Source: a virus (lineage: Duplodnaviria; Caudoviricetes). Taken from it: a stretch of DNA of 54,784 nucleotides. Of the stretch, positions 12,011 through 45,004 are shown one piece after another; position 1 is the stretch's first letter; each line of letters begins with the position of its first letter. The DNA is taken from positions 1 to 54,784 of IMG/VR virus record IMGVR_UViG_3300028384_000897; one strand, written 5' to 3'. Both the position numbers and the translations under genes were made by a program. The notes under the pieces are model-generated. The model was not told the origin of the DNA and searched no databases. It saw nothing but the letters and a program-made list of their open reading frames with translations.

Positions 12011-14335
12011 TTAATGCCCATCTCTCCAATTGTTAGCTATCTCTGGTGGAGCTTTCAAAGTAACACCAGGTAGTTGAGTAGTAGTTTCCATAATCTCTTG
12101 AACATACGGAGCAAACATATCTGCATCCTTCTCATCAACGTTAATAATCAACTGGTCATGCACTTGAGCTTGAACACAAGCATCAATACCTAATTCTTTA
12201 GCCTTACGGTTTATCTTTAAAGCTGCTCTATTAACTACCGCTGCAGCTAAGGACTGAAGTTGGAAGTTCAAACAGTTATTAAGTCCGTTTCTATAATCTC
12301 TATAAACTTTGATTACTTGATCTCTTCCATATTGAGGTTCTAATTCTTTTCTAAACCTCCAGTCCATCATTCTTTCACCAAACTTCTCATATATCTTTTT
12401 AACTCTAGGTAAATGTCTTACTCTACCTACATAGTTTTTAATAAAGCCATGATCTTTAACTTGTTTACGAGAATCTTCTCTCCATTTAGCTAGACCCGGG
12501 AATCCATCTAAGTATCCTTTAATCAACTCTTCAGCAGTTTTTTGATCGACTCCCAAAGTCATTTTAAGAGCATAAGCCTCCATTCCGTAGGCAACCCCTA
12601 ACGAGTAGGCTTTAGCTTTATTTCTCTTAACAGGATCTAGCTTCTTTAGATAGTTATCAGCTTTTTTATCAGCAGATACTCCATCAATCTTCTCAGTTTG
12701 TATAGCGACATAAGAATAAAAATCCCAACCGTTATCAAAAATCTCTTGAAGTTTCTCATCACCAGATACTGATGCAAAGCAATGAGGTTCAAGAGATTCG
12801 TAATCAGCATCAATAACTTTTCTACCATTACCTGCAGTTAAGAAAGCACGTACTATATTAACGTACTTCATGATAACAGGAGCATCTTCACCTTCTTCTA
12901 AAGGTTTAGGTAGTTGCTGAGCATCACTACCGTATCTACCCGATACAGTACCGTTCTGCTTAAAGTAGAAGTAGTATTTACCGTCCTCTTGACGGTCTCT
13001 AAATCTATCTACATAAGTTGATTTAATCTTTAAAAGCTTATTGTAGACACGTAGATTCTCAGCCCAAGGATACTCTTTAGCTAAGTCTTTAACCATATCC
13101 ATATCAAACTTAGCTCTACCAGATTTAGTATTCGCACCTTTAACTTTAGGTTCAATACCCATATACTTAAACACAATTTCACCTAAGTGCTTCTTAGATT
13201 GAATATTGATATAATCACCATCGTTAGACTCCTTCCATAAGGACATAGATATCCTAGCACATTCTAGTTCATCAAGTACTTCTTTATTCCCAGTAAGTAA
13301 AAACTCTTTTACTGGAGAGTCATCTAATTCTTGTATATTCTTAGCAGTAAGTGAATACTTACCGGTCTTTTCAGATTTAGGTAAAGGTAAAGAATATCTC
13401 TGTACTAATCTTTGAGCAAAGTTACCTTTATGAGAACAAGGATATGCTTCAGTAGCAGTATCTACTACCCATGCTTTTACTTCCGGAAGAGCAAGTAATG
13501 ACTTCATCACTATCTCTTTGTTCTTAGCTTGATCTTCTACAATCTCAGAATGAATCTTATCTATAAGTTCCACATCTAAATCTACTCCGTAGGCTTCCAT
13601 AGGTACAGTTACCTCACGGTAGATAGGCATTACTTCTTCTTCGAAGAAAAAATCTTCGAGACCTTCCTGTCTAAGTTTATCAAGATATAGATTGCAGATT
13701 CGTAGAGTAAGATCGGTATCAGCACTAGCATATTTGCTAAGAATATCAAGGTCAGCTTTGTATATTTCAAAACTTTCTTTCGTAACGGATCCTCCATTTT
13801 TCTTTATACTTTCTTTTAGTTCAATTTGCTCCTGGTTAGCAGCTTCTTCTACGTTCAGGCCAAGAGCTTCCTGATTCATAATAGCAATAGACTTAAGCCC
13901 AAAAGGATTACCAAATCCAAATGCACCTTCCTCGTACACAGTATGTACAAGCAATCCTGTATCAACCCATACGTCGGGTAATAGGTCAATACCAAAATAA
14001 TTTTTTATAAACTGAACGTCAAATGAGGCATTATGGAAGACAAGTTTCTTACCTTTTAATGCTTTAAGTAAATTCTTAGATATAACTTCACTAGAAGTAC
14101 CATCGATAGTTTGAACTTCTAACTCTCCTTTTTCAAAGTTCCATACTAAAGTAGGAATATAGAATCCAATACCTTCATCACCAGATAGTGACCATCCTAC
14201 AATTTTATTCTTTCTAGGATTAAGACCAGAGGTCTCGGTATCGACTGCTATAACTTCTGACTCTTGAATGTGTTGAAACATTAATTTTAACGTCTCAGAG
14301 TCTTGGACGGTATAGTACTTTTTTTCTATATTCAT
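12011..14335 (-). CDS. polA: Family A DNA polymerase with 3'-5' exonuclease
   Basis: Exo motifs DTETSG, HNASFD and YASAD. Motif A DADYESLE, motif B RNKAKAYSLGVAYG, motif C QVHDQL. Confidence 0.95.
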   Translation of the reverse strand: MNIEKKYYTVQDSETLKLMFQHIQESEVIAVDTETSGLNPRKNKIVGWSLSGDEGIGFYIPTLVWNFEKGELEVQTIDGTSSEVISKNLLKALKGKKLVFHNASFDVQFIKNYFGIDLLPDVWVDTGLLVHTVYEEGAFGFGNPFGLKSIAIMNQEALGLNVEEAANQEQIELKESIKKNGGSVTKESFEIYKADLDILSKYASADTDLTLRICNLYLDKLRQEGLEDFFFEEEVMPIYREVTVPMEAYGVDLDVELIDKIHSEIVEDQAKNKEIVMKSLLALPEVKAWVVDTATEAYPCSHKGNFAQRLVQRYSLPLPKSEKTGKYSLTAKNIQELDDSPVKEFLLTGNKEVLDELECARISMSLWKESNDGDYINIQSKKHLGEIVFKYMGIEPKVKGANTKSGRAKFDMDMVKDLAKEYPWAENLRVYNKLLKIKSTYVDRFRDRQEDGKYYFYFKQNGTVSGRYGSDAQQLPKPLEEGEDAPVIMKYVNIVRAFLTAGNGRKVIDADYESLEPHCFASVSGDEKLQEIFDNGWDFYSYVAIQTEKIDGVSADKKADNYLKKLDPVKRNKAKAYSLGVAYGMEAYALKMTLGVDQKTAEELIKGYLDGFPGLAKWREDSRKQVKDHGFIKNYVGRVRHLPRVKKIYEKFGERMMDWRFRKELEPQYGRDQVIKVYRDYRNGLNNCLNFQLQSLAAAVVNRAALKINRKAKELGIDACVQAQVHDQLIINVDEKDADMFAPYVQEIMETTTQLPGVTLKAPPEIANNWRDGH

Positions 14336-15419: not shown

Positions 15420-15679
15420 TAGTATTCACCGTACAGATCAAATTTCATTGGTTCAGGTTCTTCAACTTGTACTTCGTGTTTCTTAATTGCATATAATTTA
15501 CCATCTAAAGGAGCTAATCTGTACTCACCTTTAAATTTAGTTCTACGCATGTACATGGTAAGAGCCATTACCAGCCCTTCGATAGTAGTTCCTTGATCAA
15601 TAGTCAATTCCCAATTATCTCCAGGCGGTACTCTTGTAGCTATTAGCTCTTTTTCCTCCTCAATGATGATCTCGGCCAT
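15419..15679 (-). CDS. Hypothetical protein
   Basis: Translationally coupled 86 aa ORF. Confidence 0.75.
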   Translation of the reverse strand: MAEIIIEEEKELIATRVPPGDNWELTIDQGTTIEGLVMALTMYMRRTKFKGEYRLAPLDGKLYAIKKHEVQVEEPEPMKFDLYGEY

Positions 15680-19018: not shown

Positions 19019-19554
19019 TGTAATGTAGCACGTAGAAAATTGCACCACATATAGAGACTTCTATCTCTTAGAATTCTAAATAGATCATCAAGAGTATTAT
19101 TCATATTATTAAACCTTTCTTCCATAATAACTCTACCCTCATCAACTCCAGCAGTAACGTGATGAATTACAGCTCCTGCAATAGGATACTTACCTTCAAA
19201 AGCTCTAACTTGAGGATCTTTACCTTTTAGTTCTGGGTATTCAGTTATAAGGCCAGGATGTCCGTTAAACACTCTAAACTTTTCGCAAATCTCAGGAGGC
19301 ATAATTCTCAACCAACCATGTAACGTGATTATAGCTTCCGGAAAGTAAACTAAAAAGTCTTCATACTCCTCTAAAGTAGGTTTATTGTTAAGAGTAAAAA
19401 ACCCTTGCTTTACTATTCTTTCATCAATAGTTCTTAAATGATCAGGTCTTTCATTAGTATATATTCTATCCGGCCATCTTCCTAATGACTCTGCAATATC
19501 TGCGATTTCTGCTCCTGTCTGACTAAAAAATGCTATCCAAACCTTCGTTTCCAT
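19015..19554 (-). CDS. PurN-like formyltransferase (DpdN-like preQ1 formyltransferase)
   Basis: FSQTG, LHGWLRI, FNGHPG and IHHVTAGVDEG formyltransferase motifs; adjacent to the DpdA-like gene. Confidence 0.85.
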   Translation of the reverse strand: METKVWIAFFSQTGAEIADIAESLGRWPDRIYTNERPDHLRTIDERIVKQGFFTLNNKPTLEEYEDFLVYFPEAIITLHGWLRIMPPEICEKFRVFNGHPGLITEYPELKGKDPQVRAFEGKYPIAGAVIHHVTAGVDEGRVIMEERFNNMNNTLDDLFRILRDRSLYMWCNFLRATLQ

Positions 19555-20347
19555 TTGCGTACCATCTAAATTTTTGAATATTAGTTCTAATACTAGATAA
19601 AGTATCAGGACTTACATCTTCGTTAATTAATTCAAACAACTTTTGAGATTCCTTTGACCATAAGCCACCTGATTTGTATTCAATACCTTTTATTCCATGG
19701 ACCACTGGATTACTAGTATCCAAAGAATATAACCAATTATAGTTAGCATGTTTATAAAATTGAAATTCCTGAGGTAAACCACAGCCTAGTAAATGATGAG
19801 GTTTATCTTCATTAATAACACCGTCTTTAAGTAAATCTCCAAGTAACTTAACACGTCCTAGCATCCAACTAACATACTTGTTAGGATGAGGTACAGACTG
19901 TGTATAATACGAATAATCGAAAGATATAGCAATCATATCTACATCTGCTTCTTTATTCATATAATTGTAACAATCTACTATCTCATCGTAAGTTTTACCT
20001 TGAATAACTCCTATTTTGCCGCTACCTTCATAACCAAGACCTTTATTATTCCAGTCTTCCATTTGTTTGCAAGTTTTATCAGCATTCTCTAAAGCATCTG
20101 GAACAATATACCAAGCAGGTCTAATTTCGTTAACCCACTTATCAAACTTATTAGCATCGAAAGCCTCTTCTAACTCAAATATTGAATTATCTAATATTAC
20201 TTCTCTACCTTTTAAGATAGCTTTTTTAAACTGAGCTAGATACTCTGGATCTTCTTCAAATAAATGAACCAAAGCATAATCGTAGTCAGTAAACTTTTGA
20301 ACTTCTTCAAAAATACTTTTAGGACTTTCGTGTGCTATTTTAATCAT
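19523..20347 (-). CDS. dpdA: TGT-fold 7-deazaguanine transglycosylase (DpdA-like, probably the DpdA3 type)
   Basis: ILDNS, VPD, GVIQG, HHLLG and SLDTS follow the TGT/DpdA barrel motif order; located inside the que cluster. Confidence 0.75.
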   Translation of the reverse strand: MIKIAHESPKSIFEEVQKFTDYDYALVHLFEEDPEYLAQFKKAILKGREVILDNSIFELEEAFDANKFDKWVNEIRPAWYIVPDALENADKTCKQMEDWNNKGLGYEGSGKIGVIQGKTYDEIVDCYNYMNKEADVDMIAISFDYSYYTQSVPHPNKYVSWMLGRVKLLGDLLKDGVINEDKPHHLLGCGLPQEFQFYKHANYNWLYSLDTSNPVVHGIKGIEYKSGGLWSKESQKLFELINEDVSPDTLSSIRTNIQKFRWYANGNEGLDSIF

Positions 20348-26488: not shown

Positions 26489-26605
26489 TTAAAAGTTTGT
26501 ATAGTTAAAAGGATCTCTTTTTTTTAATTCTTTGATCTTTTTCTTAAACTCTCTGTCTTTTTTCCACTGCTGGTATTTACCTTTTATCCACTTAATTAGT
26601 CTCAT
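26489..26605 (-). CDS. Small basic protein (38 aa) following the carbamoyltransferase
   Basis: Not in the ORF track. MRLIKWIKG...KKRDPFNYTNF. Confidence 0.65.
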   Translation of the reverse strand: MRLIKWIKGKYQQWKKDREFKKKIKELKKRDPFNYTNF

Positions 26606-28283
26606 TCCAAATAATATAATTGTTTATAATTAAATAGTCAATATCACTATTGACCAATCGTTCGATTGCATCTTCTGGAGTTAATGTGATAGTCTGGTCC
26701 TTTAAGTTAAAAGAAGTATTTAGTAGAAGTCCGAATCCAGTTAATCTATACATCTCAGTTAACAGCTTATGATACTTTTCATTCTGCTCTTCGGTTACTG
26801 TGTGAAGTCTAGCAGACATATCAATATGAACTGCAGCAGGAAAAGGTGTCTGACCGCCGAGTTTAGCTACAGGACGTGCTTTTATAACTTGATTCATGTA
26901 TGGAATATTCTCTTTATAGTTAAAGAACTTTTTCGATGTCTCTAATATAGCAGAAGGTGCGAATGGTCTAAATCCTTCTCTTTTCTTAATTACTAAATTA
27001 AGTTTTTCTCTCATATTAGGATCCTCTGGTGAAGCTAAAATAGAACGGTTACCTAAAGCTCTTGCTCCAAATTCCATCCTACCTTGGAACCAAGCTACAA
27101 TATTTTGAGCTTGTAATAATTCAGCAGCTCTTTGTATAAGTTTATCCTCTTCTAAATTTAAAGCTCTTAACGTCTTAGGACCATTTTGTATAGCTCTCTT
27201 AACTTGATCGTCGGAATATTCTGGTCCTAGAAAAGGATTACTGTTGCCTTTTCTATTACCTTTTCTTGTATAGGAATAAAGACAAGCACCGATAGCGGAA
27301 CCTGCATCAGAAGGAGCAAATGGAACATATACAGATTTAAATTTAGGAATAATTTTACCATTAGCTACTCCATTATATGCACACCCTCCACCAATACATA
27401 TATTATCGGAATTAGTCATATTTTTAGCTGTTTTAATTAACCTAAAAAACTGTCTTTCATATACTAACTGTAAAGCTGCAGCTAAATCTTTATGTTCTTG
27501 CTTTACTTCCTCTTCTGGTAAACGAGGTTGAAGATTTAATAATCTACATAATTTTTTAGTAAACATTATTCTATCACTATATTCCCATGCAAAGTACTTT
27601 TGTTTGATCCAGTATTTATTACTTGTATTCTTAAATACTGAGTGAAGTTTGTGATAGTATACATCTGGGTCACCGTATGGAGCTAATCCCATAACTTTAT
27701 ATTCTCCTTCATTAGGTTTAAAACCTAAAAATGCAGTTATAGTTGAATATAACATACCAAGAGAATTAGGAAAATCAATACTTATCTTCTTATCTAATTT
27801 ATTTCCTTCTCCATGCCATATAGTAGTAGTTTCCCACTCACCCACTCCATCAACAGTTAGTACAGCAGCCTCTTTATATGGAGAAGTTAAATAAGCGAAA
27901 GCAGCGTGAGATAAATGATGATCTACATACACTACTTTACCGCTGTAGCCAATAGTATTTTTGAGAAGTTTTTCTGGGTTCTTATTAACCCATTCTTTTA
28001 AAAATCGCCTTTTCGTAAAAAACGTTTTAATAGGATGTTTAGAAAATATCTTGAGAACTCTATCTTTTTTGAGTTCAGGATTTTCATACCAACATACTTC
28101 GTCAATTTCATTTACGTTTATTCCAGATTCTTCTAATATCCAATTTAAGGCATTGATCGGGAAACTGGGATCATGTTTAATTTTAGTAAATCTTTCTTCT
28201 TCGGCACCTAAAAGTACCTTACCGTCTTTTACTAAACAAGCAGCTGAATCGTGATAAAAAGCTGATATTCCTATTTGTATCAT
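26592..28283 (-). CDS. Carbamoyltransferase (NodU/CmcH family)
   Basis: FYHDSAA, EEERF, HHLSHA, DGVGE, GEYKVMGLAPYG, EFGARALGNRS, RPFAP and LNTSFN. Confidence 0.95.
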   Translation of the reverse strand: MIQIGISAFYHDSAACLVKDGKVLLGAEEERFTKIKHDPSFPINALNWILEESGINVNEIDEVCWYENPELKKDRVLKIFSKHPIKTFFTKRRFLKEWVNKNPEKLLKNTIGYSGKVVYVDHHLSHAAFAYLTSPYKEAAVLTVDGVGEWETTTIWHGEGNKLDKKISIDFPNSLGMLYSTITAFLGFKPNEGEYKVMGLAPYGDPDVYYHKLHSVFKNTSNKYWIKQKYFAWEYSDRIMFTKKLCRLLNLQPRLPEEEVKQEHKDLAAALQLVYERQFFRLIKTAKNMTNSDNICIGGGCAYNGVANGKIIPKFKSVYVPFAPSDAGSAIGACLYSYTRKGNRKGNSNPFLGPEYSDDQVKRAIQNGPKTLRALNLEEDKLIQRAAELLQAQNIVAWFQGRMEFGARALGNRSILASPEDPNMREKLNLVIKKREGFRPFAPSAILETSKKFFNYKENIPYMNQVIKARPVAKLGGQTPFPAAVHIDMSARLHTVTEEQNEKYHKLLTEMYRLTGFGLLLNTSFNLKDQTITLTPEDAIERLVNSDIDYLIINNYIIWNETN

Positions 28284-28870
28284 AACTCCATTTCTTTTTT
28301 TAGATATTCAAACATTTGTTTATGACCTTTGATACCCCAGTGATGATCTGCATGTTTACTTTCTTTTGTAATAGTCGTAAACTTTCTCCACAGTAATTCA
28401 TCCCAGTAGTAGGCTTTAACTCTTCTTCTTTGAAAAGCAGTACATAAAAAATCGAAATTAGCTTGATTTCTTAGGTACACTTTATCTATGTGTTTTCTAA
28501 TATTTTTTAAAATAGCATCTGCTACTTGTTTACCTAGTAGAAGTTGACTATCCCTAATTGGCGCTACTCCAAAGAGACCTGCCTGCCAATGGTCTGGTTG
28601 ATATACGCCGAATCTTGCACATTTAGTCAAGCCTATTACTACTACATCGTTTCTCTGAATATCCTTATACCTATGTAGGATATTATCCCATATCATATCA
28701 TTAGATATACCGTGTACTCCGTGATTTTGATGTTTCATACCTAAATGGTCCGCTAATAATCTTGACCATATAAGGTGTTCTTTACCTTTATAAGTACCGT
28801 ATTGATGTTTATCGTCTGTAACACCTAATCCGGCTGTGAAAGAATCACCGAAGGCCCATAACGTATTCAT
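28280..28870 (-). CDS. SGNH-like hydrolase-fold protein
   Basis: AFGDSFTAG; DHHWG..GH. Confidence 0.65.
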   Translation of the reverse strand: MNTLWAFGDSFTAGLGVTDDKHQYGTYKGKEHLIWSRLLADHLGMKHQNHGVHGISNDMIWDNILHRYKDIQRNDVVVIGLTKCARFGVYQPDHWQAGLFGVAPIRDSQLLLGKQVADAILKNIRKHIDKVYLRNQANFDFLCTAFQRRRVKAYYWDELLWRKFTTITKESKHADHHWGIKGHKQMFEYLKKEMEL

Positions 28871-29690
28871 ATAATCTATCTTTAGGCTCCCATCCTAGTT
28901 TTTCTTTAGCATCAGAATTCTCTCTAAGAGTAACTCTATAATTTCCAGGTTGGTCGTCTATATAAATAGCTTCTGTACCGAACTTGGTTTTAAACATCTG
29001 ATACACCTCGTTTATCGAGTGGTTTTTACCAGTACCTAATTCCCATGCATCTTCATGAACTTCAGTTCTAAACCCTATTCTATATAGACCGTCTACTATA
29101 TCAATAACATGAGTAAAATCTCTTCTTTGTTCTCCATCACCTACTATAGTAATTTTTTCACTATCTCTAACTTGTCTTCTCCAAATACCAATTACTGCTG
29201 CCCAATCACCTTCTATAATTTCATTAGGACCGTAAACATTATAGAATCTAGCGATTTCAATATCCATGCCGTATGTCTTTTTATACATTTTACATACTTC
29301 TTCGCCCATATACTTACAAGCCGCATACGGTGATTGATACGGATCATGCCACTTAGAAGACGAACCGGCATAAATCACTTTAGCACCAGTTCTTCTTGCT
29401 AACTCTAATACTTGCTGTGTGCCGTAAGTATTAACTCTATAAGTTTCATCGGGATTATTAAAAGAAGGCTGTATTCTGGAAAGAGCAGCAAGATGGTATA
29501 TTTTATCGTAAGTGCCGAACTCAGTTATAGTATCAATATCTCCTATATAATAGGTGCATCTGTTATGTTCGTTTTCTATTCTGCCGCTTGAGTAATCATC
29601 GAGACTATCTACATCATGACCTTCTTCAATTAACCTTTTAATTAAGTGATGTCCTATAAAACCAGCACCTCCAGTAACTAATACCCTCAT
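28845..29690 (-). CDS. NAD-dependent nucleotide-sugar epimerase/dehydratase
   Basis: VTGGAGFIG, YAACK, RFYNVYGP and GDGEQRRDF; start at ATG 29690. Confidence 0.93.
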   Translation of the reverse strand: MRVLVTGGAGFIGHHLIKRLIEEGHDVDSLDDYSSGRIENEHNRCTYYIGDIDTITEFGTYDKIYHLAALSRIQPSFNNPDETYRVNTYGTQQVLELARRTGAKVIYAGSSSKWHDPYQSPYAACKYMGEEVCKMYKKTYGMDIEIARFYNVYGPNEIIEGDWAAVIGIWRRQVRDSEKITIVGDGEQRRDFTHVIDIVDGLYRIGFRTEVHEDAWELGTGKNHSINEVYQMFKTKFGTEAIYIDDQPGNYRVTLRENSDAKEKLGWEPKDRLYEYVMGLR

Positions 29691-30217
29691 ACTAAATTTC
29701 TTTTTTCTCTTCTTGTATTTTTTACACATAGATCACTTATTTCTATGTGATTTGGTGTGTTAATTATGAATTCTAGTATCCTAGACAATTCAGAAAATTT
29801 TAACTTATTGTATTGTTCAAAACTCCTGTTAGATTCTAGAGTACCTGGGTTAAAGTTAATAACTCTAACGCTTTTATTTGGATTAGTAGCACACAGTTCT
29901 TTTGAAAGGTTGTATAAATGCTTTTTATTTGAACTGTATACAGGAAATACCCCGTTAGTTTCATAAACGTTTGAAGTACCAAAATTGATAATCGTCTTAT
30001 TCTTACTAATCCAGGAATCGAAAAATAACTTTAACAGTCTCGATTGATCTATATTATTATAAGCGTGGTTTATAAATACGTCACAATTATTAAGTTTTGA
30101 AAAAACTGGTTTGATACCATCTCTTAAAGACGCTCCAATAATTTCATACTTATTAGACCAGTTTTCCGATAGATACTTACCTAAACCTCCTGATACTCCT
30201 GTTATACCTATTTTCAT
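29687..30217 (-). CDS. Short-chain dehydrogenase-like protein
   Basis: ITGVSGGLG, DVFINHA, YSSNK. Confidence 0.75.
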   Translation of the reverse strand: MKIGITGVSGGLGKYLSENWSNKYEIIGASLRDGIKPVFSKLNNCDVFINHAYNNIDQSRLLKLFFDSWISKNKTIINFGTSNVYETNGVFPVYSSNKKHLYNLSKELCATNPNKSVRVINFNPGTLESNRSFEQYNKLKFSELSRILEFIINTPNHIEISDLCVKNTRREKRNLV

Positions 30218-35657: not shown

Positions 35658-37001
35658 CTAAATTTTATCAAAAATTTCGTTAACAGCTTTTCTAGAGAAA
35701 GTAAAATTGTCACTGGTAGTAACTTCTTCACTTTCTAGATCAGCTTTTTCTAGGAATTCTATATGTCCGTTATTGGTATCCATTTTAACGTTATATGTCA
35801 TTCCATCTTGTCCATATCTATTTTTCATCACATGGACTCGCCCGGTACCCAGTACCTTATCTTCTTTTTGTCTTGAAAGAGAAAGACAGATATCTGCAAC
35901 CATCATCTTATCATAACTGCCTGCTGCTTTATCTCCTTCAATAACAGAATCTTTAGCTCCCATTCTATTTACCTGAGAAGGTGTAAGAATAGGTATTTTC
36001 ATTTCTTTGGCAAGTCCTTTTGTAGCGATAAATACATCGTCTATTTCGTCCTTACGTTCAGAAAATTTACTTTTACTTCTTGCTCTAAGGTAATCAACAT
36101 AATCGATTATTACTAAGTCTGGTTTATGTTCCATATCTATACATTTCTGTATATGAGAACGAATAGTCCCTACAGAAGCTGATTTAGGAGCATACTCTTT
36201 AACAATAAGTTTACCTTTAAGATTATCTACATGTGTCTGTACTTGTTTTCTGTGTTTATTTACCTCATCTATAGAGTGTCCAGTAAAGTAACAATCAAAT
36301 CTCTTCCCAACATAGTCTTCTCCTAATTCTAAAGTATAGTAATTTACTTTATACCCTAACTGTACAGCATGAGCTGCTATTGCAACCATCGTCCAAGACT
36401 TACCGCCGCCAGGATTTCCAAACATTATAGCAAGGTCCCCAGGACCGAACCCTCCTTGAATACCATCATTTAGTATACCCCAAGGACTAGGGATAGTAGG
36501 GCGATAGTCAGTACGGTAACGAGTTTCAACGTCTTTATTGTATTCATGTCCAATATTTTTATCCATACCAGCTTTCATAGCTTTCTCAATCATATTTCTT
36601 ATCCCATCGAAATCATGTTCTTTGAGTAAGTCTGCTGAGTTAAGTATGGCAGATTTCATTTCTTGATTCTTACAGAAGGTTTGAAATTCTTCTTGTACAT
36701 ATTCTAGATCATCTTGCGATGCTTCATAAGAGTTTCTTAATTCTTCTTTGAGTGCAACTTGAAGTACTTCGTTTTCTACCTTTTGAAGCTCTACTTTAAG
36801 TACATCCATAGTAACATTAGTATGATACTTATCAAAATACTCACATATTTGCTTTATAATCCATTTATGTGAATCAGCATCAAAATAGTGATCATGTAAT
36901 ACGTCACGGACGTTTAATAAAAACTTCTTATCTGTAAGTAGAGAACCTAAAACCTTTAGTTGGAACCCCTTCCCGTACTGTTGTAAACTCTTTAATGTCA
37001 T
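35658..37001 (-). CDS. Replicative DnaB/gp41-like helicase
   Basis: GNPGGGKS, YTLEL, IIDYVD, SQVNR, KNRYG. Confidence 0.93.
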   Translation of the reverse strand: MTLKSLQQYGKGFQLKVLGSLLTDKKFLLNVRDVLHDHYFDADSHKWIIKQICEYFDKYHTNVTMDVLKVELQKVENEVLQVALKEELRNSYEASQDDLEYVQEEFQTFCKNQEMKSAILNSADLLKEHDFDGIRNMIEKAMKAGMDKNIGHEYNKDVETRYRTDYRPTIPSPWGILNDGIQGGFGPGDLAIMFGNPGGGKSWTMVAIAAHAVQLGYKVNYYTLELGEDYVGKRFDCYFTGHSIDEVNKHRKQVQTHVDNLKGKLIVKEYAPKSASVGTIRSHIQKCIDMEHKPDLVIIDYVDYLRARSKSKFSERKDEIDDVFIATKGLAKEMKIPILTPSQVNRMGAKDSVIEGDKAAGSYDKMMVADICLSLSRQKEDKVLGTGRVHVMKNRYGQDGMTYNVKMDTNNGHIEFLEKADLESEEVTTSDNFTFSRKAVNEIFDKI

Positions 37002-37024: not shown

Positions 37025-37447
37025 TTAATTTTCTTCTAATAGCCAACTAGATGATTGTATTTTATCTCCTAATCCATCGATTAATTCTATACCGAATTGC
37101 TCACAAGTTTGTCTCTCCGGTATTGTATCATTATTCTGGTCTCCACCGTTAGCGAAAGCTAATTTATATGTTTCGTTAAATTTACCAAACATTAATTTTA
37201 AGCTTTCATTCTGAGTATTATCTTCATCGATTGAAACCCATGCCATATCAACTACACTAAGAGCTCTAATTATTTGAACTCTTTCTTGTTCATCCATGAA
37301 GAATTTAGAACCCTTCAATTCTCTTTGTTTATCATTATTTACTATAACTATTAAAGCATCACCTACTTCCTTAGCTTTTTCAAATAACTCTAAATGTCCT
37401 TTATGAAGCGGGTTAAAATAACCGCTAACTATAACTGCTTTTTTCAT
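37025..37447 (-). CDS. Cytidylyltransferase-like nucleotidyltransferase
   Basis: SGYFNPLHKGH, FANGGD, KIQSSS. Confidence 0.88.
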   Translation of the reverse strand: MKKAVIVSGYFNPLHKGHLELFEKAKEVGDALIVIVNNDKQRELKGSKFFMDEQERVQIIRALSVVDMAWVSIDEDNTQNESLKLMFGKFNETYKLAFANGGDQNNDTIPERQTCEQFGIELIDGLGDKIQSSSWLLEEN

Positions 37448-38469
37448 TTTACTGTTGTTAATCCTCTAAAATTTTCTAACCAACCTTCAGTATTCTTAGT
37501 TATACCTTCAATTTTATCTTGATCAAGCATATGAAGAAATGCCCCAGATTGAAGTTCCGGTACTTTACTACCAATTACTTCACTAACGTACTCTTTTTCT
37601 CTATCATCTAATTGAGAATTATGCAAATCCATTAGATCGAAGTTAGTCATAACTCTATCCCAATTATGTAGTATTTTAGCAAAAATCTTTTTAGGTTTTT
37701 TAGTTTCTAACTGTGTTTCACAGTGGTCCCATACATCTTGTAAACTAGCTAAAGGGTCATAACTAAAACTTTTCCATTCAGAGAGTATTGTTTTTATTCC
37801 TAATCCTTTAACTCCTGGTAAGTTATCTGAATTGTCACCGAGTAATGCTTTTACAATATTGTAATTCTGCGGTAATACTCCTATCTCTTCCTTTATATTA
37901 TTAATATCAATTGTCCTCTTTTTTACTGGAGCGTAAATTTCAATATTATTATCAATTAACTGATAAAAATCTTTATCAGAAGAGACGATAGTAACTTTTT
38001 TACCAGATGCAGATGCTTTTTTAGCGAGATACGCCATTATATCATCAGCTTCTAGCTTTTCCATTACTATTTGCTGTAACGGTAAACAATCTAAATAATC
38101 CTTTACTCTAAAAAGTTGATTAATTAATGCTTCTGTCTCTTCCTCTTTGGTGTCGTACAACCCCCAATGAGTAATTCTAGAAGTAGCTCTCTGAGCTTTA
38201 TAGTTTGGATCTATATTCTGTCTATTCCCAGAACCTCCTTTACCGTCCCATACTACTATAACCCTAGTAGGATCGAAAATCCTAGTTACATAACCTAAAG
38301 AGCGAAGAAACCCAACAAGCCCACCGATATGGGTACCTGAAGGGTTCATCGCTTTTAGTAGCGAAAACGATCTAATTAGAGTATTCATTCCATCAATCAA
38401 CAGAATATGATCGTTTAACGCTCGGGGTGGGGTCTCTTTAAGGTTGTTAAGAATATTCTCAAATGCCAT
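37444..38469 (-). CDS. 5'-3' exonuclease / RNase H (FEN family)
   Basis: LIDG, YKAQR, EADD, SSDKDFYQL, GDNSDNLPGVKGLG. Confidence 0.93.
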   Translation of the reverse strand: MAFENILNNLKETPPRALNDHILLIDGMNTLIRSFSLLKAMNPSGTHIGGLVGFLRSLGYVTRIFDPTRVIVVWDGKGGSGNRQNIDPNYKAQRATSRITHWGLYDTKEEETEALINQLFRVKDYLDCLPLQQIVMEKLEADDIMAYLAKKASASGKKVTIVSSDKDFYQLIDNNIEIYAPVKKRTIDINNIKEEIGVLPQNYNIVKALLGDNSDNLPGVKGLGIKTILSEWKSFSYDPLASLQDVWDHCETQLETKKPKKIFAKILHNWDRVMTNFDLMDLHNSQLDDREKEYVSEVIGSKVPELQSGAFLHMLDQDKIEGITKNTEGWLENFRGLTTVK

Positions 38470-39539
38470 TAATCGAGTAGATTAGGTGAGATTGGTGTTT
38501 CTTCTAAGTCTCCTTCCTCGATTAAATCAAAATCAATAGAACCTACTAATTTTAACCAGTGCTCTTTATGGGCATCTTTGTACTTATCAATTGCTCTTTT
38601 ATCATCAGGTAAAAATCCATGAGGTGTCATTACTATCCTACCTCTAGATTGTACTCCGCCAATATGATTCTTCTCTACTTGAACGTTTGTACGTTTAGCA
38701 AACTCTACTTGCATACCGTTCTTAATAGCTTTGATTTTCGATGTACCTGGGTTAGTGATATTCCCGAAAGTAATAACTAAAGTAGCATCATACCACATTG
38801 ACATACCTCCTTTATTCTGTAACTTAGGTTGACCCATCGGAGATTCCGGTTTCATAGTCCAGACTTTATTGATAGCAACTAAAGTATTAGTATAAGGAGA
38901 GTTTTCTTTACGAGAAAGTAGAATTTTCTGGTTTAGATTATTACCAAATTGAGTAGACATAGCACCTGCATTCCACTCGTTATTGTTCTTATTAGAACGA
39001 ACTGATAAATCACAGGGTACAGAGCCGATACTATCCCAGAAGAAACACATATCGTAAGGTAAGTTACCTTTTGCTTGCTCATCCATAAGATCAGCAATAT
39101 AGACTGCTACATCTTCAATAGTATTGAGAGTACCTCTATCAGCATAGAGGAAATGACCTTCATAATCAGTAACTACTCCGTTATCATCTCTAACTTCCTC
39201 AACCTGAAGTCCCATTTCTTTAGCATGTTCCCAAGACCATTTCATCTCTGTAATAATGAAGACCGGGAGAATGCCCAGTTTTTGAGCATTCACCGCAGCT
39301 TCTATTAGGGCAGTAGTTTTGCCCGTATCACTATGTCCACGCAAGAGAGTGATATGCCCGGTAGGAATACCAGGTAAAGATGTGATGTCTTGAAAAGCTT
39401 TAGATAATGGTATCCAGCCTTGTTCTTTAAATTTTACTGATGCATTAGAAAATCCTTTCTTTTTCTTAAAATTAGATAAGTTAAAAGACTTTCTTACAGC
39501 TTCAGTTGCTTTTGCTTGTACTTCTTTTTTCTTCGCCAT
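38469..39539 (-). CDS. RecA/UvsX-like recombinase
   Basis: GHSDTGKTT, WDSIG, INKV, GG, KNH motifs. Confidence 0.88.
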   Translation of the reverse strand: MAKKKEVQAKATEAVRKSFNLSNFKKKKGFSNASVKFKEQGWIPLSKAFQDITSLPGIPTGHITLLRGHSDTGKTTALIEAAVNAQKLGILPVFIITEMKWSWEHAKEMGLQVEEVRDDNGVVTDYEGHFLYADRGTLNTIEDVAVYIADLMDEQAKGNLPYDMCFFWDSIGSVPCDLSVRSNKNNNEWNAGAMSTQFGNNLNQKILLSRKENSPYTNTLVAINKVWTMKPESPMGQPKLQNKGGMSMWYDATLVITFGNITNPGTSKIKAIKNGMQVEFAKRTNVQVEKNHIGGVQSRGRIVMTPHGFLPDDKRAIDKYKDAHKEHWLKLVGSIDFDLIEEGDLEETPISPNLLD

Positions 39540-40336
39540 TATTCATTAAATAAATCATCAAACTTACTAACTGTATCTTGGTTGCCAGCAGTAGCTGTTT
39601 CCAATGTAAAGTCAGTCTTTTGAGGACTATTGCTTTCTGGCGTAGTTTCAGAACCTGCTGGAGGGGTATTCTCTTCAGCTGATCCTGGGTTTAAGTAATT
39701 TTGAAGTTGTTTCTTAACAAAGTCATAATCGTATTGAGTATGAACTTCAGTAGGATTAGGTTGTTCTTTCAACCATTTGTCTACTTGATCGTTGTTATCT
39801 GATAAAGCAGTTTGTTTAGGTTTAATTCTTACTGTTGTTGTTGGGTAAGGGTTTCCTTGTACTTGTTCTACTACAAGATCCCATCCATTAATAACGTCAG
39901 TAAAATCTCCTACATCTTCGTCTTCAGCTAATGCTAGGAGTGCTTTGTAAATTGTGATACCAAAGCCCCATAGTCTTACACCTTTATCTTCTTCTCCTCT
40001 TACTATTACAGGAGCAAAGACTCTAGTTTTAGGGTTAAGCTTACCAGATAGAGACCAATTGTCTTTATCATTAGTCTTTCTTAATTCTTTTACGAACTCT
40101 TCAATAGGGTCTTGCTTACCGAAATTCGATAAGGCAACCATAGGGTATTTACCAATACCATAGTGAAACTTCAATTCCTTAAAAGGAAATGTAGGGTCGA
40201 AGGCAGAAGGTACAATCCTAACTGTTTGTTTACCTAATTCAGGTTTCCAAAAGATAGTTGAATAGTCTGTCTTCTCTCTCTGTTGACCGTTATTATTTAA
40301 CGAATCAAGCTTTGCGCGAATTGCATTTAAATCCAT
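39539..40336 (-). CDS. Single-stranded DNA-binding protein (gp32-like)
   Basis: FWKP..G...VRIVP, DFTD..G.D, acidic tail KFDDLFNE. Confidence 0.8.
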   Translation of the reverse strand: MDLNAIRAKLDSLNNNGQQREKTDYSTIFWKPELGKQTVRIVPSAFDPTFPFKELKFHYGIGKYPMVALSNFGKQDPIEEFVKELRKTNDKDNWSLSGKLNPKTRVFAPVIVRGEEDKGVRLWGFGITIYKALLALAEDEDVGDFTDVINGWDLVVEQVQGNPYPTTTVRIKPKQTALSDNNDQVDKWLKEQPNPTEVHTQYDYDFVKKQLQNYLNPGSAEENTPPAGSETTPESNSPQKTDFTLETATAGNQDTVSKFDDLFNE

Positions 40337-40453: not shown

Positions 40454-40909
40454 TTATTGCTGTACTTCTAAAATCTTAAATAATTTGGTATTTACTCTTT
40501 TGAGCTCAGGTCCTTTGGTTAGCAATATACAGTTCCTGTAATCCATCCAATTTACTCTATAAGTCTTATCTAAAACTCCATTATTGAGTTCTTTAACAAG
40601 GGTATTGAGTGCGTTTATAGTATAAAGTGTATTTGATTCTTTTTTACGATGGACTAATATAGTGTTCTCTAAAAATGTAGAAACATTTCCAAAGTCAACA
40701 TTATACGTACAAATATATTCGTCTTGGCTCTTAGAGTAAAGAACGAAAATTTTGTTGTATATGATTTTATATTTTTCCTTTATCGCATCCAAAGTAGAGT
40801 CTAACTCGGCTTCGGTAGAAAAGGTGCAGAATAGTTTATTGCTCATATCTTCATTAAAAAATATAGGTTCAATATCATAATCAAACCTTTTTTCTATAAC
40901 ATTTGTCAT
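40454..40909 (-). CDS. Hypothetical protein between the second PolA and SSB
   Basis: LFCTF, CTYNV, LVHRKKESNTLYTINALN; function not recognised. Confidence 0.8.
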   Translation of the reverse strand: MTNVIEKRFDYDIEPIFFNEDMSNKLFCTFSTEAELDSTLDAIKEKYKIIYNKIFVLYSKSQDEYICTYNVDFGNVSTFLENTILVHRKKESNTLYTINALNTLVKELNNGVLDKTYRVNWMDYRNCILLTKGPELKRVNTKLFKILEVQQ

Positions 40910-40931
40910 TTTATATAAATATTAGTTATTA

Positions 40932-42257
40932 TCATAAAACTAAATTAGAACTGAATTTGAAACTTACAGGGTACTTTCCATCTTCTGAGAGTATGTTTTC
41001 TAAGTCTTGTAATAACTCTTTACCGTCATCTTTACTAAAATCAAACAGTATGGAATCGTACGTATAAAGTACTGCTTTAGTCTTTTTATCTTTTAAGTAC
41101 CTTAGTACTTCTTTTAGTATTTTTATATTCCTAGAAGTCTCTAATGACTGCATTACATAGTTCATCAGCTTCTGAGGGTTCATATCTTTCAACGATTTTG
41201 TGAAAGGCTTTCCACTAATTGGAGCCAGGATTTTTCCGTCATCTTGATATCGTTGCCATAACTCTTTGATATAAGAGTCAATTCGTTCAAAGATGTCAAG
41301 GAAAGCGTACTGTTCTGGTATTTTTCCATAAATTGCGTGAAAGTTAATTTGCTTTGCTTTTGCATATTCTTCATCTGTTATTTCGTCTTTTTCAAAATAG
41401 AGTTTAGCTAATTGTTTATGAGCAGATTCATTTGTCAATTCATACTTAATCTGATCAGCAAGTAAACGAAGGTGATAACCATCAAAATCAAACTCGACAA
41501 AGTAATCCCCGGTCGGACGGAAACATTGGCGGTGCTCTTGATTCTTAGGAATAGCAGCGAAATTAACGCTATTAAAAGCATTAGTTGGTCTAGAAGTAAC
41601 ATTGTATAAATTATATTGAGTTAATACTTTAATCCCATCGGTATTATAAATAGGATTACGTGGTTTGAATAACTTATTGAAAGGTTCATAATAAACACCC
41701 AATCCAGACTGCTCTAACAAGTAAAATACGTTAGTAGCTGTAGAATTATAAAAGTCAAATCCTTCAGGTTTCTTTAACTCGATAGCTTTACTAACTGAGT
41801 TGTAAAGTTTTTCGCTTGACTCGTATAATTTACTTAATGGAATAAGTTGATTAATATTACTATGACTGTTATGTTTGTTATAAAAATAATTTAACGTGCT
41901 ATTCTCCTTCGAATACTCTAATTTATCGAATTTTACCATAGAATAAAGTAAAGAAACATCTATGGCTGACTGTAGATTAAAGTGGTAGAGAAGGTTCTTC
42001 TTGTTAACTGTATATAGTTTAGAAGACTTAGATAAAAGTTCGTAGACCCGGTTTTTATCTACGTTAATTCCTTCATCGTGATTGATAGGAATAATAAAAC
42101 CGAAATCAGATTTAAGTAATCTGATATATACTGCAACGGTAGAAGTTAGTTTAGGATGAAAATAATCATTAGACGATATTACGTCCACAAAACAACCTAA
42201 TCTTACTAATTTTTCTAACGATGCTAATTTATGCTCTTCTTCTACTATATAAAACAC
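40932..42257 (-). CDS. Short, atypical family A DNA polymerase
   Basis: TSRPTN, motif A EFDFDGYHLRLL, motif B AKQINFHAIYG, NYVMQSLET, motif C LYTYDSILFD; GTG start after a promoter. Confidence 0.85.
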   Translation of the reverse strand: MFYIVEEEHKLASLEKLVRLGCFVDVISSNDYFHPKLTSTVAVYIRLLKSDFGFIIPINHDEGINVDKNRVYELLSKSSKLYTVNKKNLLYHFNLQSAIDVSLLYSMVKFDKLEYSKENSTLNYFYNKHNSHSNINQLIPLSKLYESSEKLYNSVSKAIELKKPEGFDFYNSTATNVFYLLEQSGLGVYYEPFNKLFKPRNPIYNTDGIKVLTQYNLYNVTSRPTNAFNSVNFAAIPKNQEHRQCFRPTGDYFVEFDFDGYHLRLLADQIKYELTNESAHKQLAKLYFEKDEITDEEYAKAKQINFHAIYGKIPEQYAFLDIFERIDSYIKELWQRYQDDGKILAPISGKPFTKSLKDMNPQKLMNYVMQSLETSRNIKILKEVLRYLKDKKTKAVLYTYDSILFDFSKDDGKELLQDLENILSEDGKYPVSFKFSSNLVL

Positions 42258-42296: not shown

Positions 42297-42830
42297 TCAA
42301 ATTACAAACTCTCCGAGGTCTGATAAGTAGTTTTTTATTCCTTGTACTTCCTTTTCTGCTTTCTCTACTGCCAATCCATTTCTATATTTTGCTCCTTTGT
42401 AAAGGTAACCGTTATAGTAAGTATCTTCTATAGGGCCTTCTAACCACCATTCTATCTGACATCCTATATAAGAAGGAAAGTTTTTAATATTTTTAAAATC
42501 AGCTGCGACTACTTCGATTATTTTACCATTTCTTTTATCTTTAGTAAAATATCTTTTAAATTTTTTAGACTCGTAATCGTTTTCAGTAGGTTTAATATAA
42601 GCTATTTTTGGAGCTTTAGATTCTTTGGCTGCTGCTTCTTTTTCTTCTAATTCTTTAGCAAATATTAATTTTCTACCAGCTTCTTTTGGAAATCTACCTT
42701 CATACATTTCTCCCTTATAGGTAACAAAGTACTGTCCTTTGAAGTCTTCTTTCGTTTCTTCTATGAGCATACGCTTATCACCACCAGAGGCTGTAAAGGG
42801 TCCTTTGTATTTAGATTTTGGTAGATACAT
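42297..42830 (-). CDS. Hypothetical protein at the end of the baseplate operon
   Basis: Coupled to the upstream gene. Confidence 0.75.
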   Translation of the reverse strand: MYLPKSKYKGPFTASGGDKRMLIEETKEDFKGQYFVTYKGEMYEGRFPKEAGRKLIFAKELEEKEAAAKESKAPKIAYIKPTENDYESKKFKRYFTKDKRNGKIIEVVAADFKNIKNFPSYIGCQIEWWLEGPIEDTYYNGYLYKGAKYRNGLAVEKAEKEVQGIKNYLSDLGEFVI

Positions 42831-45004
42831 TATTCTTGACTTAATATTACTGCATTAGCTTCAATTTGAGTAGACCATTCGTTATTAGATATTTCATGTG
42901 ACACATTTGAAATCTGAAATCCTACTTCTAACCCATCTGAATAAGATTGTGGAAGTACTTCATCAGGTAACTTGAAGAACTGTAGAGCTTTGAGTCCACC
43001 TATCCCCATCATTGTAAGGTTTACTTTAGCACCGATATGCCCTCTCTTACCTTTTGCTTTACCTACATGTTCATCTAACTCTTGCTGTATTAGTGAAGCA
43101 CCGTTGGGCAATGCTTTTTCTATAGTATCAGAATCGTATTTACCTTTTTCAAAGATTGATTTAAATTGATCTTCTAATGCTGTTTTAGAATCTGCTTTTG
43201 CTTTTTCGTATTCTTTTGCTTTAGCTTGTACATCTTGAGAACCAGCAGAGGTAAATCTGCTAGATATACCTGTATTAAATGCTGCTAAGCCTGTTGATGC
43301 ATTTTTACCTGCGTCTTGACCTTGTATTATAGCTTGATTTACTATTAGGTTGATCATAGAATTAGACAGAGTGCTATTAAAAGAAAAGTCTTTAAGAAAA
43401 GATTTCTGCCCTCTAGGTATTATTACTGTGTAGTTATCTTCTTGGCCTTCTGGTCTAGGGGTTAGTTGTAAATCTATAATCTTACTCGGTCCTAATTCTT
43501 TCTTTAGATAGAAATCGTTGTATAAAGTAAACTGGTTTACTCCTCCTAATGATTTTTCTAATTGTTCAAATACATTATTTAAAAAAGTTCCAATACTTAC
43601 ATCTATAGGTTTACCTCCTTCATCTTTTCTTAACTTTTTATACTCATCATATAAAAATTGAGTAGAAAGATGTAAATCCATAATATCTCCTCTATCATCA
43701 TCTCTATCACCAGATATAATTCCTTCAGTTTTTAATCCATATTTTCCTGTTTGCCCAGGTAAAAGACATATACCAGGGTCTATACTAAAATGTTCAGGAT
43801 AAGATAAATAATAATCTATTCCAGGAGTAGTATTAAACTTACCGTTAGGAGTTTCTGTATCAGCTGAATCTCTAGGTAAGAAGAAATAGTTAACCATACC
43901 AAGAAGGAATCTCATACTAATATAGTTAAACCTATTACCGCCTGGTCTACCATTAGCTGCATTAAAACCAGCTCTATACACTTTAAATTCAAATGAATCT
44001 CCTTCAGTGTTAAGTAGATTTTCAATACCGGTAATTGATTCCGAATATTTAGATTGTAGCGCAGCATCTATTCTATCCATATCTGCCTCTTCAATGATAT
44101 CATCACTTTCTTGATAGCCTCTTTTATCTGCATCATTTATAGTAGAAAGTATTCCACCAAAAGAAGACTGGTTAGATGGATCAAATTCAACTCCTGCATC
44201 AGTAGCTGATCCTTTGCTTTCTTCTGAATCTGTTCCTCCATGCATTTTACGTAAAAAGGTAGTCATCGCACCTTCACCAAGTAGTTCTATATTAACTGTG
44301 TATCCATCTCGTTCATAATTCCAATCATAGTTCTTTATAAGTCCTATCATAAAATCGTAATTATGTTGAGTGTTGTCTATAATAGTGCCACCAGCTTCTT
44401 TTAAATCATCTTCAGCATTTTCTCCATTAGTTACTTGTATAGTAGAAGGAGGAGTAGGTTGTGCCTGTATAGATTCACCTTTAATATCACTACCTTTACC
44501 GTAAACTACATGTCCCCATTCTAATAAACATTTAAAACCTGGTCTTAAATATAATTTTTCGATTATAGACAATTGTTCTAAACTAAAACATCTTACTGTT
44601 ATTTGAGCTTCTCTTGTATAACCGCTGTTACCTCGGTTTATTACTCTAACATCTAATATACCGGGCATAGGTACAAACCCTTCATTGCTAGCAAAATTAT
44701 ATGCTCCAGAAGAATCAGAAAAAGGATCTGTTGAAATTCCTGCTCGAAGTTTTCCATCCTTATCTAACGTACCTCCATGCAGAATATGCTTCATAGCAGC
44801 ATCTGGATCTGATTCAAGCTTAATTCCGGAAGTTAATCTTACAAAAGAGTTATTTCCGTTAATAAAACTTTGTAAAAAATTAGGAGGTACATTAGCTGAT
44901 TTACCGAACAGATTAGCTCGAGCAGCTAGTTGTTTACTTACTTCTGGGTCTATAGTATCTAGAGAAGGTAAGGGTCTAGTAAAAAACACGCCTTTTTCTG
45001 CCAT
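42830..45004 (-). CDS. Baseplate hub-like structural protein
   Basis: Position after the LysM gene; PMPGI, LYLRPG..LLEWG and ISNVSHEIS.NEWST.I motifs. Confidence 0.6.
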   Translation of the reverse strand: MAEKGVFFTRPLPSLDTIDPEVSKQLAARANLFGKSANVPPNFLQSFINGNNSFVRLTSGIKLESDPDAAMKHILHGGTLDKDGKLRAGISTDPFSDSSGAYNFASNEGFVPMPGILDVRVINRGNSGYTREAQITVRCFSLEQLSIIEKLYLRPGFKCLLEWGHVVYGKGSDIKGESIQAQPTPPSTIQVTNGENAEDDLKEAGGTIIDNTQHNYDFMIGLIKNYDWNYERDGYTVNIELLGEGAMTTFLRKMHGGTDSEESKGSATDAGVEFDPSNQSSFGGILSTINDADKRGYQESDDIIEEADMDRIDAALQSKYSESITGIENLLNTEGDSFEFKVYRAGFNAANGRPGGNRFNYISMRFLLGMVNYFFLPRDSADTETPNGKFNTTPGIDYYLSYPEHFSIDPGICLLPGQTGKYGLKTEGIISGDRDDDRGDIMDLHLSTQFLYDEYKKLRKDEGGKPIDVSIGTFLNNVFEQLEKSLGGVNQFTLYNDFYLKKELGPSKIIDLQLTPRPEGQEDNYTVIIPRGQKSFLKDFSFNSTLSNSMINLIVNQAIIQGQDAGKNASTGLAAFNTGISSRFTSAGSQDVQAKAKEYEKAKADSKTALEDQFKSIFEKGKYDSDTIEKALPNGASLIQQELDEHVGKAKGKRGHIGAKVNLTMMGIGGLKALQFFKLPDEVLPQSYSDGLEVGFQISNVSHEISNNEWSTQIEANAVILSQE

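Follow-up and report, generated by a model that had tools for sequence, protein, structure and literature searches.

The virus record IMGVR_UViG_3300028384_000897 (Duplodnaviria; Caudoviricetes) carries, next to a set of replication and recombination genes, a gene for a second, small family-A DNA polymerase, which is the subject of this study. The window referred to throughout is the whole of this IMG/VR record, a 54,784-nucleotide (nt) fragment (54.8 kb) which by completeness estimate represents about 36% of a phage genome. The genes around the polymerase are all encoded on the minus strand. The polymerase gene (40932..42257) starts with GTG and encodes 441 amino acids (aa), and its product is a thumb-truncated and predicted exonuclease-dead polymerase. 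After 22 nt it is followed by an open reading frame (ORF) of 151 aa (40454..40909), which encodes a conserved protein with the motif HRKKESNTLYTINALN, a candidate partner of the polymerase. Downstream of this pair are genes for a gp32-like single-strand DNA-binding protein (SSB; 39539..40336; Pfam gp32, PHROG 1192), a RecA/UvsX-like recombinase (38469..39539; PHROG 97 with E 5e-18, Pfam RecA below its cut-off), a 5'-3' exonuclease or flap endonuclease (FEN; 37444..38469; Pfam 5_3_exonuc_N, 116.9 bits), a cytidylyltransferase-like protein of 140 aa (37025-37447) and a DnaB-type replicative helicase (35658..37001; Pfam DnaB_C, 70 bits). Both subunits of ribonucleotide reductase are encoded after DnaB. 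A regular PolA of 774 aa with a 3'-5' exonuclease domain (12011..14335, minus strand; Pfam, 193.8 bits) is encoded 26.6 kb away from the small polymerase. The original prediction, made from the DNA letters alone, placed the small polymerase at the head of an SSB-RecA-FEN block with a full PolA about 27 kb off, and this arrangement is borne out.

Among phage records the nearest relatives are the Flavobacterium phages immuto, whose gp001 is 58% identical to the 441-aa polymerase over 441/441 residues. Immuto gp001 is a named member of divPolA1, a family of divergent polymerases described computationally (Yutin, Tolstoy, Mutz, Wolf, Krupovic, Koonin, Virol J 2024;21:200; PMC11348598). In that description divPolA1 occurs in 14 phages with genomes of 155-190 kb, comprising immuto and uncultured relatives, each of which also has a regular polymerase of family A, B or C. 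The divPolA1 proteins have a truncated thumb and an inactivated exonuclease but keep the palm residues, and the replication genes downstream of them are conserved (PMC11348598). The polymerase of the window is assigned to this family, as it combines homology, the palm catalytic residues, a truncated thumb, a dead exonuclease, a regular polymerase elsewhere and downstream replication genes; nothing in the published description that we compared contradicts this (PMC11348598). The gene therefore belongs to a family which is already known, rather than to a new kind of system. The literature search found the name divPolA1 confined to the 2024 paper and its preprint, and the main-text section on divPolA1 makes no mention of a histidine at the steric gate, of tyrosine in place of R754 or of the 151-aa neighbour (PMC11348598). 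What is added here is the invariant gate histidine, the losses in the nucleotide pocket, the size of the family, its fast evolution, a survey of DnaG and DpdA, and the linkage to the neighbouring gene.

The family is large. An exhaustive search returned 1108 clusters (at 50% identity) at E<=0.001, of which 491 matched at E<=1e-30, and most of the 150 matches listed were 399-462 aa long. Related sequences come mostly from marine and seawater metagenomes; a scan of cellular genomes with the single polymerase protein found no relative. Because 491 clusters match so strongly, the 441-aa polymerase is taken to be neither a decayed gene nor a chance ORF, and the earlier proposal of a specialised second polymerase kept under selection, as opposed to a pseudogene, is upheld. 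Two small PolA-like ORFs with weaker matches to the divPolA1 profile (L109, on G007:C139, 442 aa, E 1.5e-13; L111, on G008:C84, 371 aa, E 5e-5) may be more divergent branches of the family.

Standard domain models capture the protein poorly. On its own the 441-aa protein scores 31.2 bits against the Pfam DNA_pol_A model (PF00476; residues 227-315), below the cut-off of 34.3 bits, and reaches 34.5 bits once the neighbouring in-frame pieces are included, while PHROGs gives zero matches. We therefore worked from an alignment of the window polymerase with 68 of the 150 listed matches, chosen by eye as full-length (n=69); these are 28-50% identical to the window polymerase. The profile of this alignment matches the Klenow fragment with E 1.4e-9, and it is this match, together with the fold, that establishes homology to PolA, since the comparison of the same profile with the window's own regular PolA by hhalign was not significant (E 0.26). 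In the Klenow alignment, Arg223, Asp257, His262, Tyr298, Lys302, Phe306, Tyr310, Gln370, Tyr400, Asp401 and Ser402 are equivalent to R668, D705, E710, R754, K758, F762, Y766, Q849, H881, D882 and E883, respectively.

The motifs can be placed on this basis, all on the minus strand. Motif 2 (TGR-like; NVTSRPTN, 41580..41603) contains the invariant Arg223. Motif A (DFDGYHLR, residues 257-264, 41466..41489) contains the catalytic Asp257 and, at the steric gate, His262 (41472-41474). Motif B, on the O-helix (YAKAKQINFHAIYG, residues 298-311, 41325..41366), has Tyr298 in place of R754 and keeps Lys302, Phe306 and Tyr310. Motif C (YTYDSILFD, residues 398-406, 41040..41066) has the catalytic Asp401, Tyr400 for H881, Ser402 for E883, and Asp406. 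These motif strings and ORFs agree with what had been claimed for the gene, namely a second small family-A polymerase with altered motifs, both catalytic aspartates and a reduced thumb. As for the regular PolA, its motif B reads KAKAYSLGVAYG, with leucine at the Klenow F762 position in an alignment made by eye.

Nine residues are invariant in 69/69 sequences (R223, N232, D257, H262, K302, Q370, E373, D401 and D406), and Y310 (68/69), Y400 (68/69) and F306 (65/69) are nearly so. At the R754 position Tyr298 is found in 57/69, and at the E883 position residue 402 is Ser or Ala in 68/69. The canonical glutamate gate, Arg754 and the HDE of motif C are thus absent throughout the family, which has His, Tyr and YD(S/A) instead. 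To our knowledge, other family-A polymerases have glutamate at the gate position, where divPolA1 has histidine. With R754, H881 and E883 replaced and a Pfam score below threshold, divPolA1 could be imagined as a catalytically dead scaffold that keeps the shape of Pol I only. This is very unlikely, because a scaffold would not be expected to keep catalytic positions, and the metal-binding Asp pair, K302, R223 and Q370 are present in 69/69 and Y310 in 68/69, among sequences as divergent as these. Some room for stranger readings is left by the exchange of the contacts to the triphosphate and by two newly acquired invariant acids, E373 and D406.

The original prediction had drawn from the change of Glu to His at the gate the suggestion of RNA or primer synthesis, and this is not supported. 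Histidine is a proven gate elsewhere: H931 of family-D polymerases has been shown experimentally to be the gate, with H931A abolishing discrimination (PMC7708050), and H760 has been proposed as the gate of Pol III alpha (PMC8485763). The replacement changes the gate and does not remove it, and Phe306, at the F762 position, is kept, so the default expectation is an enzyme selective for deoxyribonucleotides and RNA synthesis is not implied. The invariant histidine most likely still excludes ribonucleotides.

The AlphaFold2 model of the polymerase has a predicted local distance difference test score (pLDDT) of 96.5 and a predicted template-modelling score (pTM) of 0.93. In Foldseek it matches Klenow (1kfd) with E 8e-18 and a template-modelling score (TM) of 0.72, and in VIA-align it matches the Bst large fragment (6dsu_A) with Z 27.1 and a root-mean-square deviation (rmsd) of 4.2, with 411/441 residues aligned to targets 577-580 residues long. 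All of the best 50 matches listed in each of the two fold searches are DNA polymerases. The Klenow and Bst large fragments are therefore the closest structural relatives, with motifs 2, A, B, 6 and C alignable, but divPolA1 is about 165 residues smaller, carries the substitutions E710H, R754Y, H881Y and E883S/A, has lost most of the thumb and has a dead exonuclease site. Klenow chain residues 236-313, about 80 residues that make up most of the thumb, have no counterpart in the profile alignment.

The N-terminal exonuclease-fold domain occupies approximately residues 1-190 (41679..42257, minus strand; an approximate boundary taken from the secondary structure of the model). The fold is whole and superposes on the Pol I large fragment from residue 1, and the alignment of 69 sequences has no conserved acidic residue in the Exo I strand (residues 22-28); the Exo II and III equivalents also appear to lack catalytic acids, judged by eye only. 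The earlier statement that there are no clear exonuclease motifs is confirmed with the refinement that the exonuclease fold itself is present. Other residues of this domain are nearly invariant: H34 (66/69), H60 (68/69), E/D62 (69/69), K87 (64/69), D100 (64/69) and P140 (67/69). Their retention would suggest a kept function, for example a binding surface or a metal site. Taken together, alignment and model show a Pol I fold with intact metal ligands, intact readers of the primer-template minor groove (R223 and Q370) and intact nucleotide readers (K302, F306 and Y310).

The strong Foldseek matches include Pol nu and Pol theta, and like these enzymes divPolA1 might be a lesion-bypass polymerase, acting on the ultraviolet-damaged DNA of phages in surface waters. 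The dead exonuclease, the altered nucleotide pocket, the position of the gene by RecA and SSB and the mostly marine origin of the relatives would fit this. However, bypass polymerases have insertions and a full thumb where divPolA1 is minimal, and the module looks replicative, with DnaB, FEN and ribonucleotide reductase; we regard lesion bypass as distinctly unlikely.

A cut-down PolA encoded beside a small conserved protein also recalls CCPol-MP, of the staphylococcal cassette chromosome (SCC) elements, and the PolA-SSB primases, with which the window shares a nearby helicase, a shortened thumb and a short helix before motif A (PMC7581432; PMC10061031). The polymerase and the 151-aa protein could by analogy form a primase or initiator, in the manner of CCPol-MP, in which a family-A polymerase and a small DNA-binding protein begin chains de novo, or an RNA-making enzyme. 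The helix preceding the motif-A strand is only four residues long (240-243, by DSSP), with a two-residue deletion relative to Klenow, and a short helix at this point has been linked to room for the initiating triphosphate (Bebel 2020, PMC7581432; Rice 2023, PMC10061031). Replacement of the triphosphate contacts R754 and H881 points the same way. CCPol-MP, as described in these two papers, has a glutamate gate (E174), a partner with an oligonucleotide/oligosaccharide-binding (OB) fold and an MCM-like helicase, and belongs to mobile islands of Bacillota with serine recombinases. The window differs in its histidine gate, a partner whose model is not a barrel, a whole exonuclease fold, a DnaB gene four genes away and the presence of DnaG in its relatives; the operon of polymerase, SSB and helicase on a mobile island with a recombinase is replaced by a phage module (PMC7581432; PMC10061031).

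The distribution of DnaG speaks against priming by this pair. A separate primase, which it had been suggested to look for, is present as a DnaG-type protein in 4/4 complete or near-complete genomes that bear divPolA1: it is annotated in immuto as gp091, and homologues occur with 39% identity in Mel-JY01, 84% in an IMG/VR relative that is 96% complete, and 34% in LR756508 (484 kb). None was seen in the window or in three fragments of 47-59% completeness, which for fragments is uninformative. In addition, the exonuclease fold of divPolA1 is whole and not truncated, the gate histidine is bulky and serves as a gate in PolD, F306 is kept, the partner model is mixed alpha/beta with no OB-fold match among the rows listed, and structurally divPolA1 resembles DNA Pol I enzymes most. 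There is on this evidence only a slim chance that the pair is a primase or makes RNA.

The divPolA2 of barbaviruses resembles divPolA1 in being a second divergent PolA beside a regular polymerase, but it is set apart by the published description, with an unrelated N-terminal domain, a variable context and structural matches to RNA polymerases (PMC11348598). The reclassification of PolA by Czernecki et al. (2023) has 19 clusters, and the passages of it compared here do not describe a thumbless subfamily with a histidine gate. Within the divPolA1 alignment, by comparison, that histidine has no exception. A further group, the TV-Pol family, was reportedly described by Iyer, Abhiman and Aravind in 2008. 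It is mentioned in the discussion of Rice 2023 (PMC10061031).

The 151-aa protein is itself abundant, with at least 8000 matches (thousands of clusters). Among 20 sequences of its family 45 alignment columns are invariant, the motif HRKKESNTLYTINALN included. A homologue lies 3' of the polymerase in 78/78 IMG/VR loci with at least 520 nt downstream (80 loci were found), starting no more than 60 nt past the polymerase end in 75/78 and at 606-830 nt in 3/78. Mel-JY01 also has a homologue (hhalign probability 99.8%, 44% identity), and in immuto the homologue is gp002. The 484-kb phage has two ORFs, of 358 and 104 aa, between the polymerase and the small gene. A reverse search of cellular genomes from the 151-aa alignment gave 12 loci, all in metagenome bins; divPolA1 is directly upstream in seven, one has no room, and four have another upstream gene (L102, L103, L105 and L106). 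The SSB gene still follows the 151-aa homologue in L102 and L106. In one of these four bins a full divPolA1 lies on a different contig (E 3e-162), in two there are the small PolA-like ORFs with weaker matches (L109 and L111), and the remaining one has only a 905-aa Pol I-like gene. Since the bins are mixtures, these data speak of loosened adjacency and not of absence of the polymerase.

The other genes of the module are just as constant. Where the loci have room, SSB is present in 63/63, RecA in 48/48, FEN in 38/38 and DnaB in 32/32, and the gene order is also held in Mel-JY01, whose polymerase is 29% identical, and in the 484-kb phage LR756508. Because the whole module is colinear, the linkage of the 151-aa gene is not specific to the polymerase, to which the gene is tied no more closely than to SSB. 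The co-occurrence survey that had been proposed shows the association, and the adjacency of the two genes stands; the idea that the 151-aa protein is a polymerase subunit rests on that adjacency only, which the rest of the module shares and which is broken in divergent lineages. The cytidylyltransferase-like gene behaves differently, with a homologue between FEN and DnaB in only 10/38 related loci reaching past FEN, which makes it a variable insert, whereas the remainder of the module is fixed.

Little can be read from the 151-aa protein by homology. Pfam and PHROGs contain nothing for it, and a permissive Pfam scan of 20 family members gave scattered sub-threshold matches only (FecR_C in 7/20, P-II in 7/20, T_Ag_DNA_bind in 2/20), the one located T_Ag_DNA_bind match covering 36 residues with E 0.012. 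Its profile had 0 matches among PDB sequences at E<=10. The structural model (pLDDT 81.9) is disordered in residues 1-23 and otherwise of mixed alpha/beta type, not a beta barrel. Foldseek gave 0 matches to the PDB at E<=0.001, the ESM Atlas no usable match, and BFVD only the protein's own uncharacterised orthologue. The best VIA-align match (Z 6.5) covers residues 21-86 and corresponds to a common ferredoxin-like unit; Z values are low throughout, and none of these searches assigns the protein a fold. The sole whole-domain matches are the origin-binding domains of polyomavirus T antigens (Z 5.6-6.1, 94-101 residues, rmsd 3.6-4.6), a resemblance that falls short of what the tool counts as meaningful and serves as a lead only. 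From its position by SSB and UvsX, a UvsY-like mediator or a gp59-like helicase loader was considered, but these proteins are all-helical, unlike the model. The 151-aa protein is a core module protein, possibly DNA-binding and possibly a subunit of the polymerase.

If that lead is followed, divPolA1 and the 151-aa protein might constitute a two-subunit enzyme, of an origin independent of CCPol-MP, that starts or restarts DNA chains at recombination intermediates or origins. The origin-binding-like small protein would take over the grip on DNA from the lost thumb, and the histidine gate with the loss of Arg754 and His881 would permit initiation. We consider this unlikely, but if it is true, marine phages of a very abundant group would have a second initiator in addition to DnaG.

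The rates of evolution bear on the division of labour between the two polymerases. Over the IMG/VR loci, median identity to the window proteins is 60.9% for divPolA1, 71.6% for FEN, 76.5% for the 151-aa protein, 78.7% for SSB, 82.4% for DnaB and 88.6% for RecA, making divPolA1 the fastest-evolving and least conserved gene of the module. Between the window and immuto it is 58% identical, where the regular PolA is 67% identical (to gp199). In the eight most distant loci divPolA1 (38-41% identity) and FEN (36-40%) diverge in step. The regular polymerase, for its part, is a PolA in the window and immuto but a family-B enzyme of 855 aa in Mel-JY01, where no PF00476 match was seen at all; neither immuto nor Mel-JY01 has a match to Pol III alpha. 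This exchange of PolA and PolB agrees with the replicase swapping reported for these phages (PMC11348598).

Such constancy could be taken to mean that divPolA1 is the true replicase, with the 151-aa protein supplying the DNA grip of the missing thumb and the regular PolA, PolB or PolC as an accessory or repair enzyme. It is constant and stands first in the replication module, the regular polymerase is swapped from one family to another, the 151-aa protein follows it in every locus with room, and the regular polymerases lie in functionally mixed neighbourhoods (PMC11348598). Yet a replicase of genomes of about 150-480 kb would be working without proofreading, the supposed partner is separated from it in several lineages, and in one and the same pair of genomes divPolA1 has changed faster than the regular PolA. 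Being less conserved than both the module genes and the regular PolA, divPolA1 fits the main replicase poorly, and we regard this as unlikely, if the most credible of the alternatives.

With moderate confidence, we propose instead that divPolA1 probably serves the replication-recombination module as a short-patch DNA polymerase, distributive and without proofreading. This is suggested by its being encoded with SSB, UvsX, FEN and DnaB, by its persistence whichever replicase is present, by the separate primase and by its fast evolution. It would be an active, template-directed and error-tolerant DNA polymerase, which for want of most of the thumb would add short stretches per binding event. Truncation of the thumb of Pol I is known to lower processivity and fidelity while leaving the enzyme active (Rice 2023 citing Minnick 1996, PMC10061031). 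Primers would come from DnaG and bulk synthesis from the exchangeable regular polymerase (the 774-aa PolA in this phage), with divPolA1 filling gaps and extending 3' ends on intermediates coated with SSB and UvsX. As divPolA1 and the separate FEN would between them restore the polymerase and 5'-nuclease activities of bacterial Pol I, they may act as a split Pol I in lagging-strand maturation, and primer removal with gap filling is the most economical specific job. Extension of D-loops made by UvsX is an equally plausible second one.

Several points weigh against this proposal. The role is inferred from gene context and from missing parts, and gap filling, D-loop extension, primer hand-off and lesion bypass are not separated by the data. 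The literature search found no activity assay of any member of the family. The family-wide changes at R754, H881 and E883 could be compatible with an altered substrate or weak catalysis, and constancy across replicase swaps can equally be read as the mark of a core enzyme. For divPolA1 and FEN, the parallel divergence amounts to a correlation across eight loci, all from related phages.

Another reading links the polymerase to modified DNA. The window encodes DpdA (19547..20347, minus strand), 77% identical to the DNA-guanine transglycosylase of immuto, and a QueF-like nitrile reductase (15679-16590, minus strand), which together indicate a 7-deazaguanine DNA-modification system in the phage, as annotated in immuto. 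The presence of DpdA and Que genes in both phages could suggest that divPolA1 is specialised for such DNA. DpdA is weakly matched in the 96%-complete relative, but it is absent from the complete Mel-JY01 and from the 484-kb record, two of the five records searched, and both of these have the module. The divPolA1 family is therefore not tied to 7-deazaguanine DNA. Moreover, DpdA-type systems insert the base after replication. Specialisation for modified nucleotides is thus extremely unlikely, and the earlier suggestion of a polymerase that handles modified nucleotides fails.

The family merits attention because it is widespread in aquatic phages and shows which parts of Pol I stay once the thumb and proofreading are lost. 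It also persists across swaps of the main replicase between families A and B, and family C as well according to the published survey (PMC11348598). Knowing its job would show how large phages divide labour between two polymerases, and divPolA1 might yield a compact polymerase with unusual handling of substrates. For the window itself, the gain is that the gene is correctly annotated and that the hypotheses about it have been narrowed.

Some further observations concern the surroundings of the two polymerase genes. Promoter-like and terminator-like sites around the polymerase and 151-aa pair are no commoner than in shuffled sequence, and no RNA sequencing run was found to contain the stretch, which says nothing about expression either way. 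Upstream of the polymerase are two genes of 177 and 724 aa (42297-45004, minus strand), the first without a Pfam match, which hold their position in 61/66 loci with room (L006-L085, L094) and in the 484-kb phage, although their identity across loci is only 22-45%. As this pair keeps its place, the fixed gene block reaches beyond the replication genes. The regular PolA adjoins a GroEL gene (9479-11116) and a 108-aa ORF, possibly GroES, and chaperonin genes beside the regular PolA agree with the neighbourhood described by Yutin et al. (2024; PMC11348598). Finally, a carbamoyltransferase (563 aa) and a nucleotide-sugar epimerase/dehydratase (294 aa) are encoded among phage genes at 26592-29729 (minus strand), and their targets could be DNA, in hypermodification, or the surface sugars of the host.

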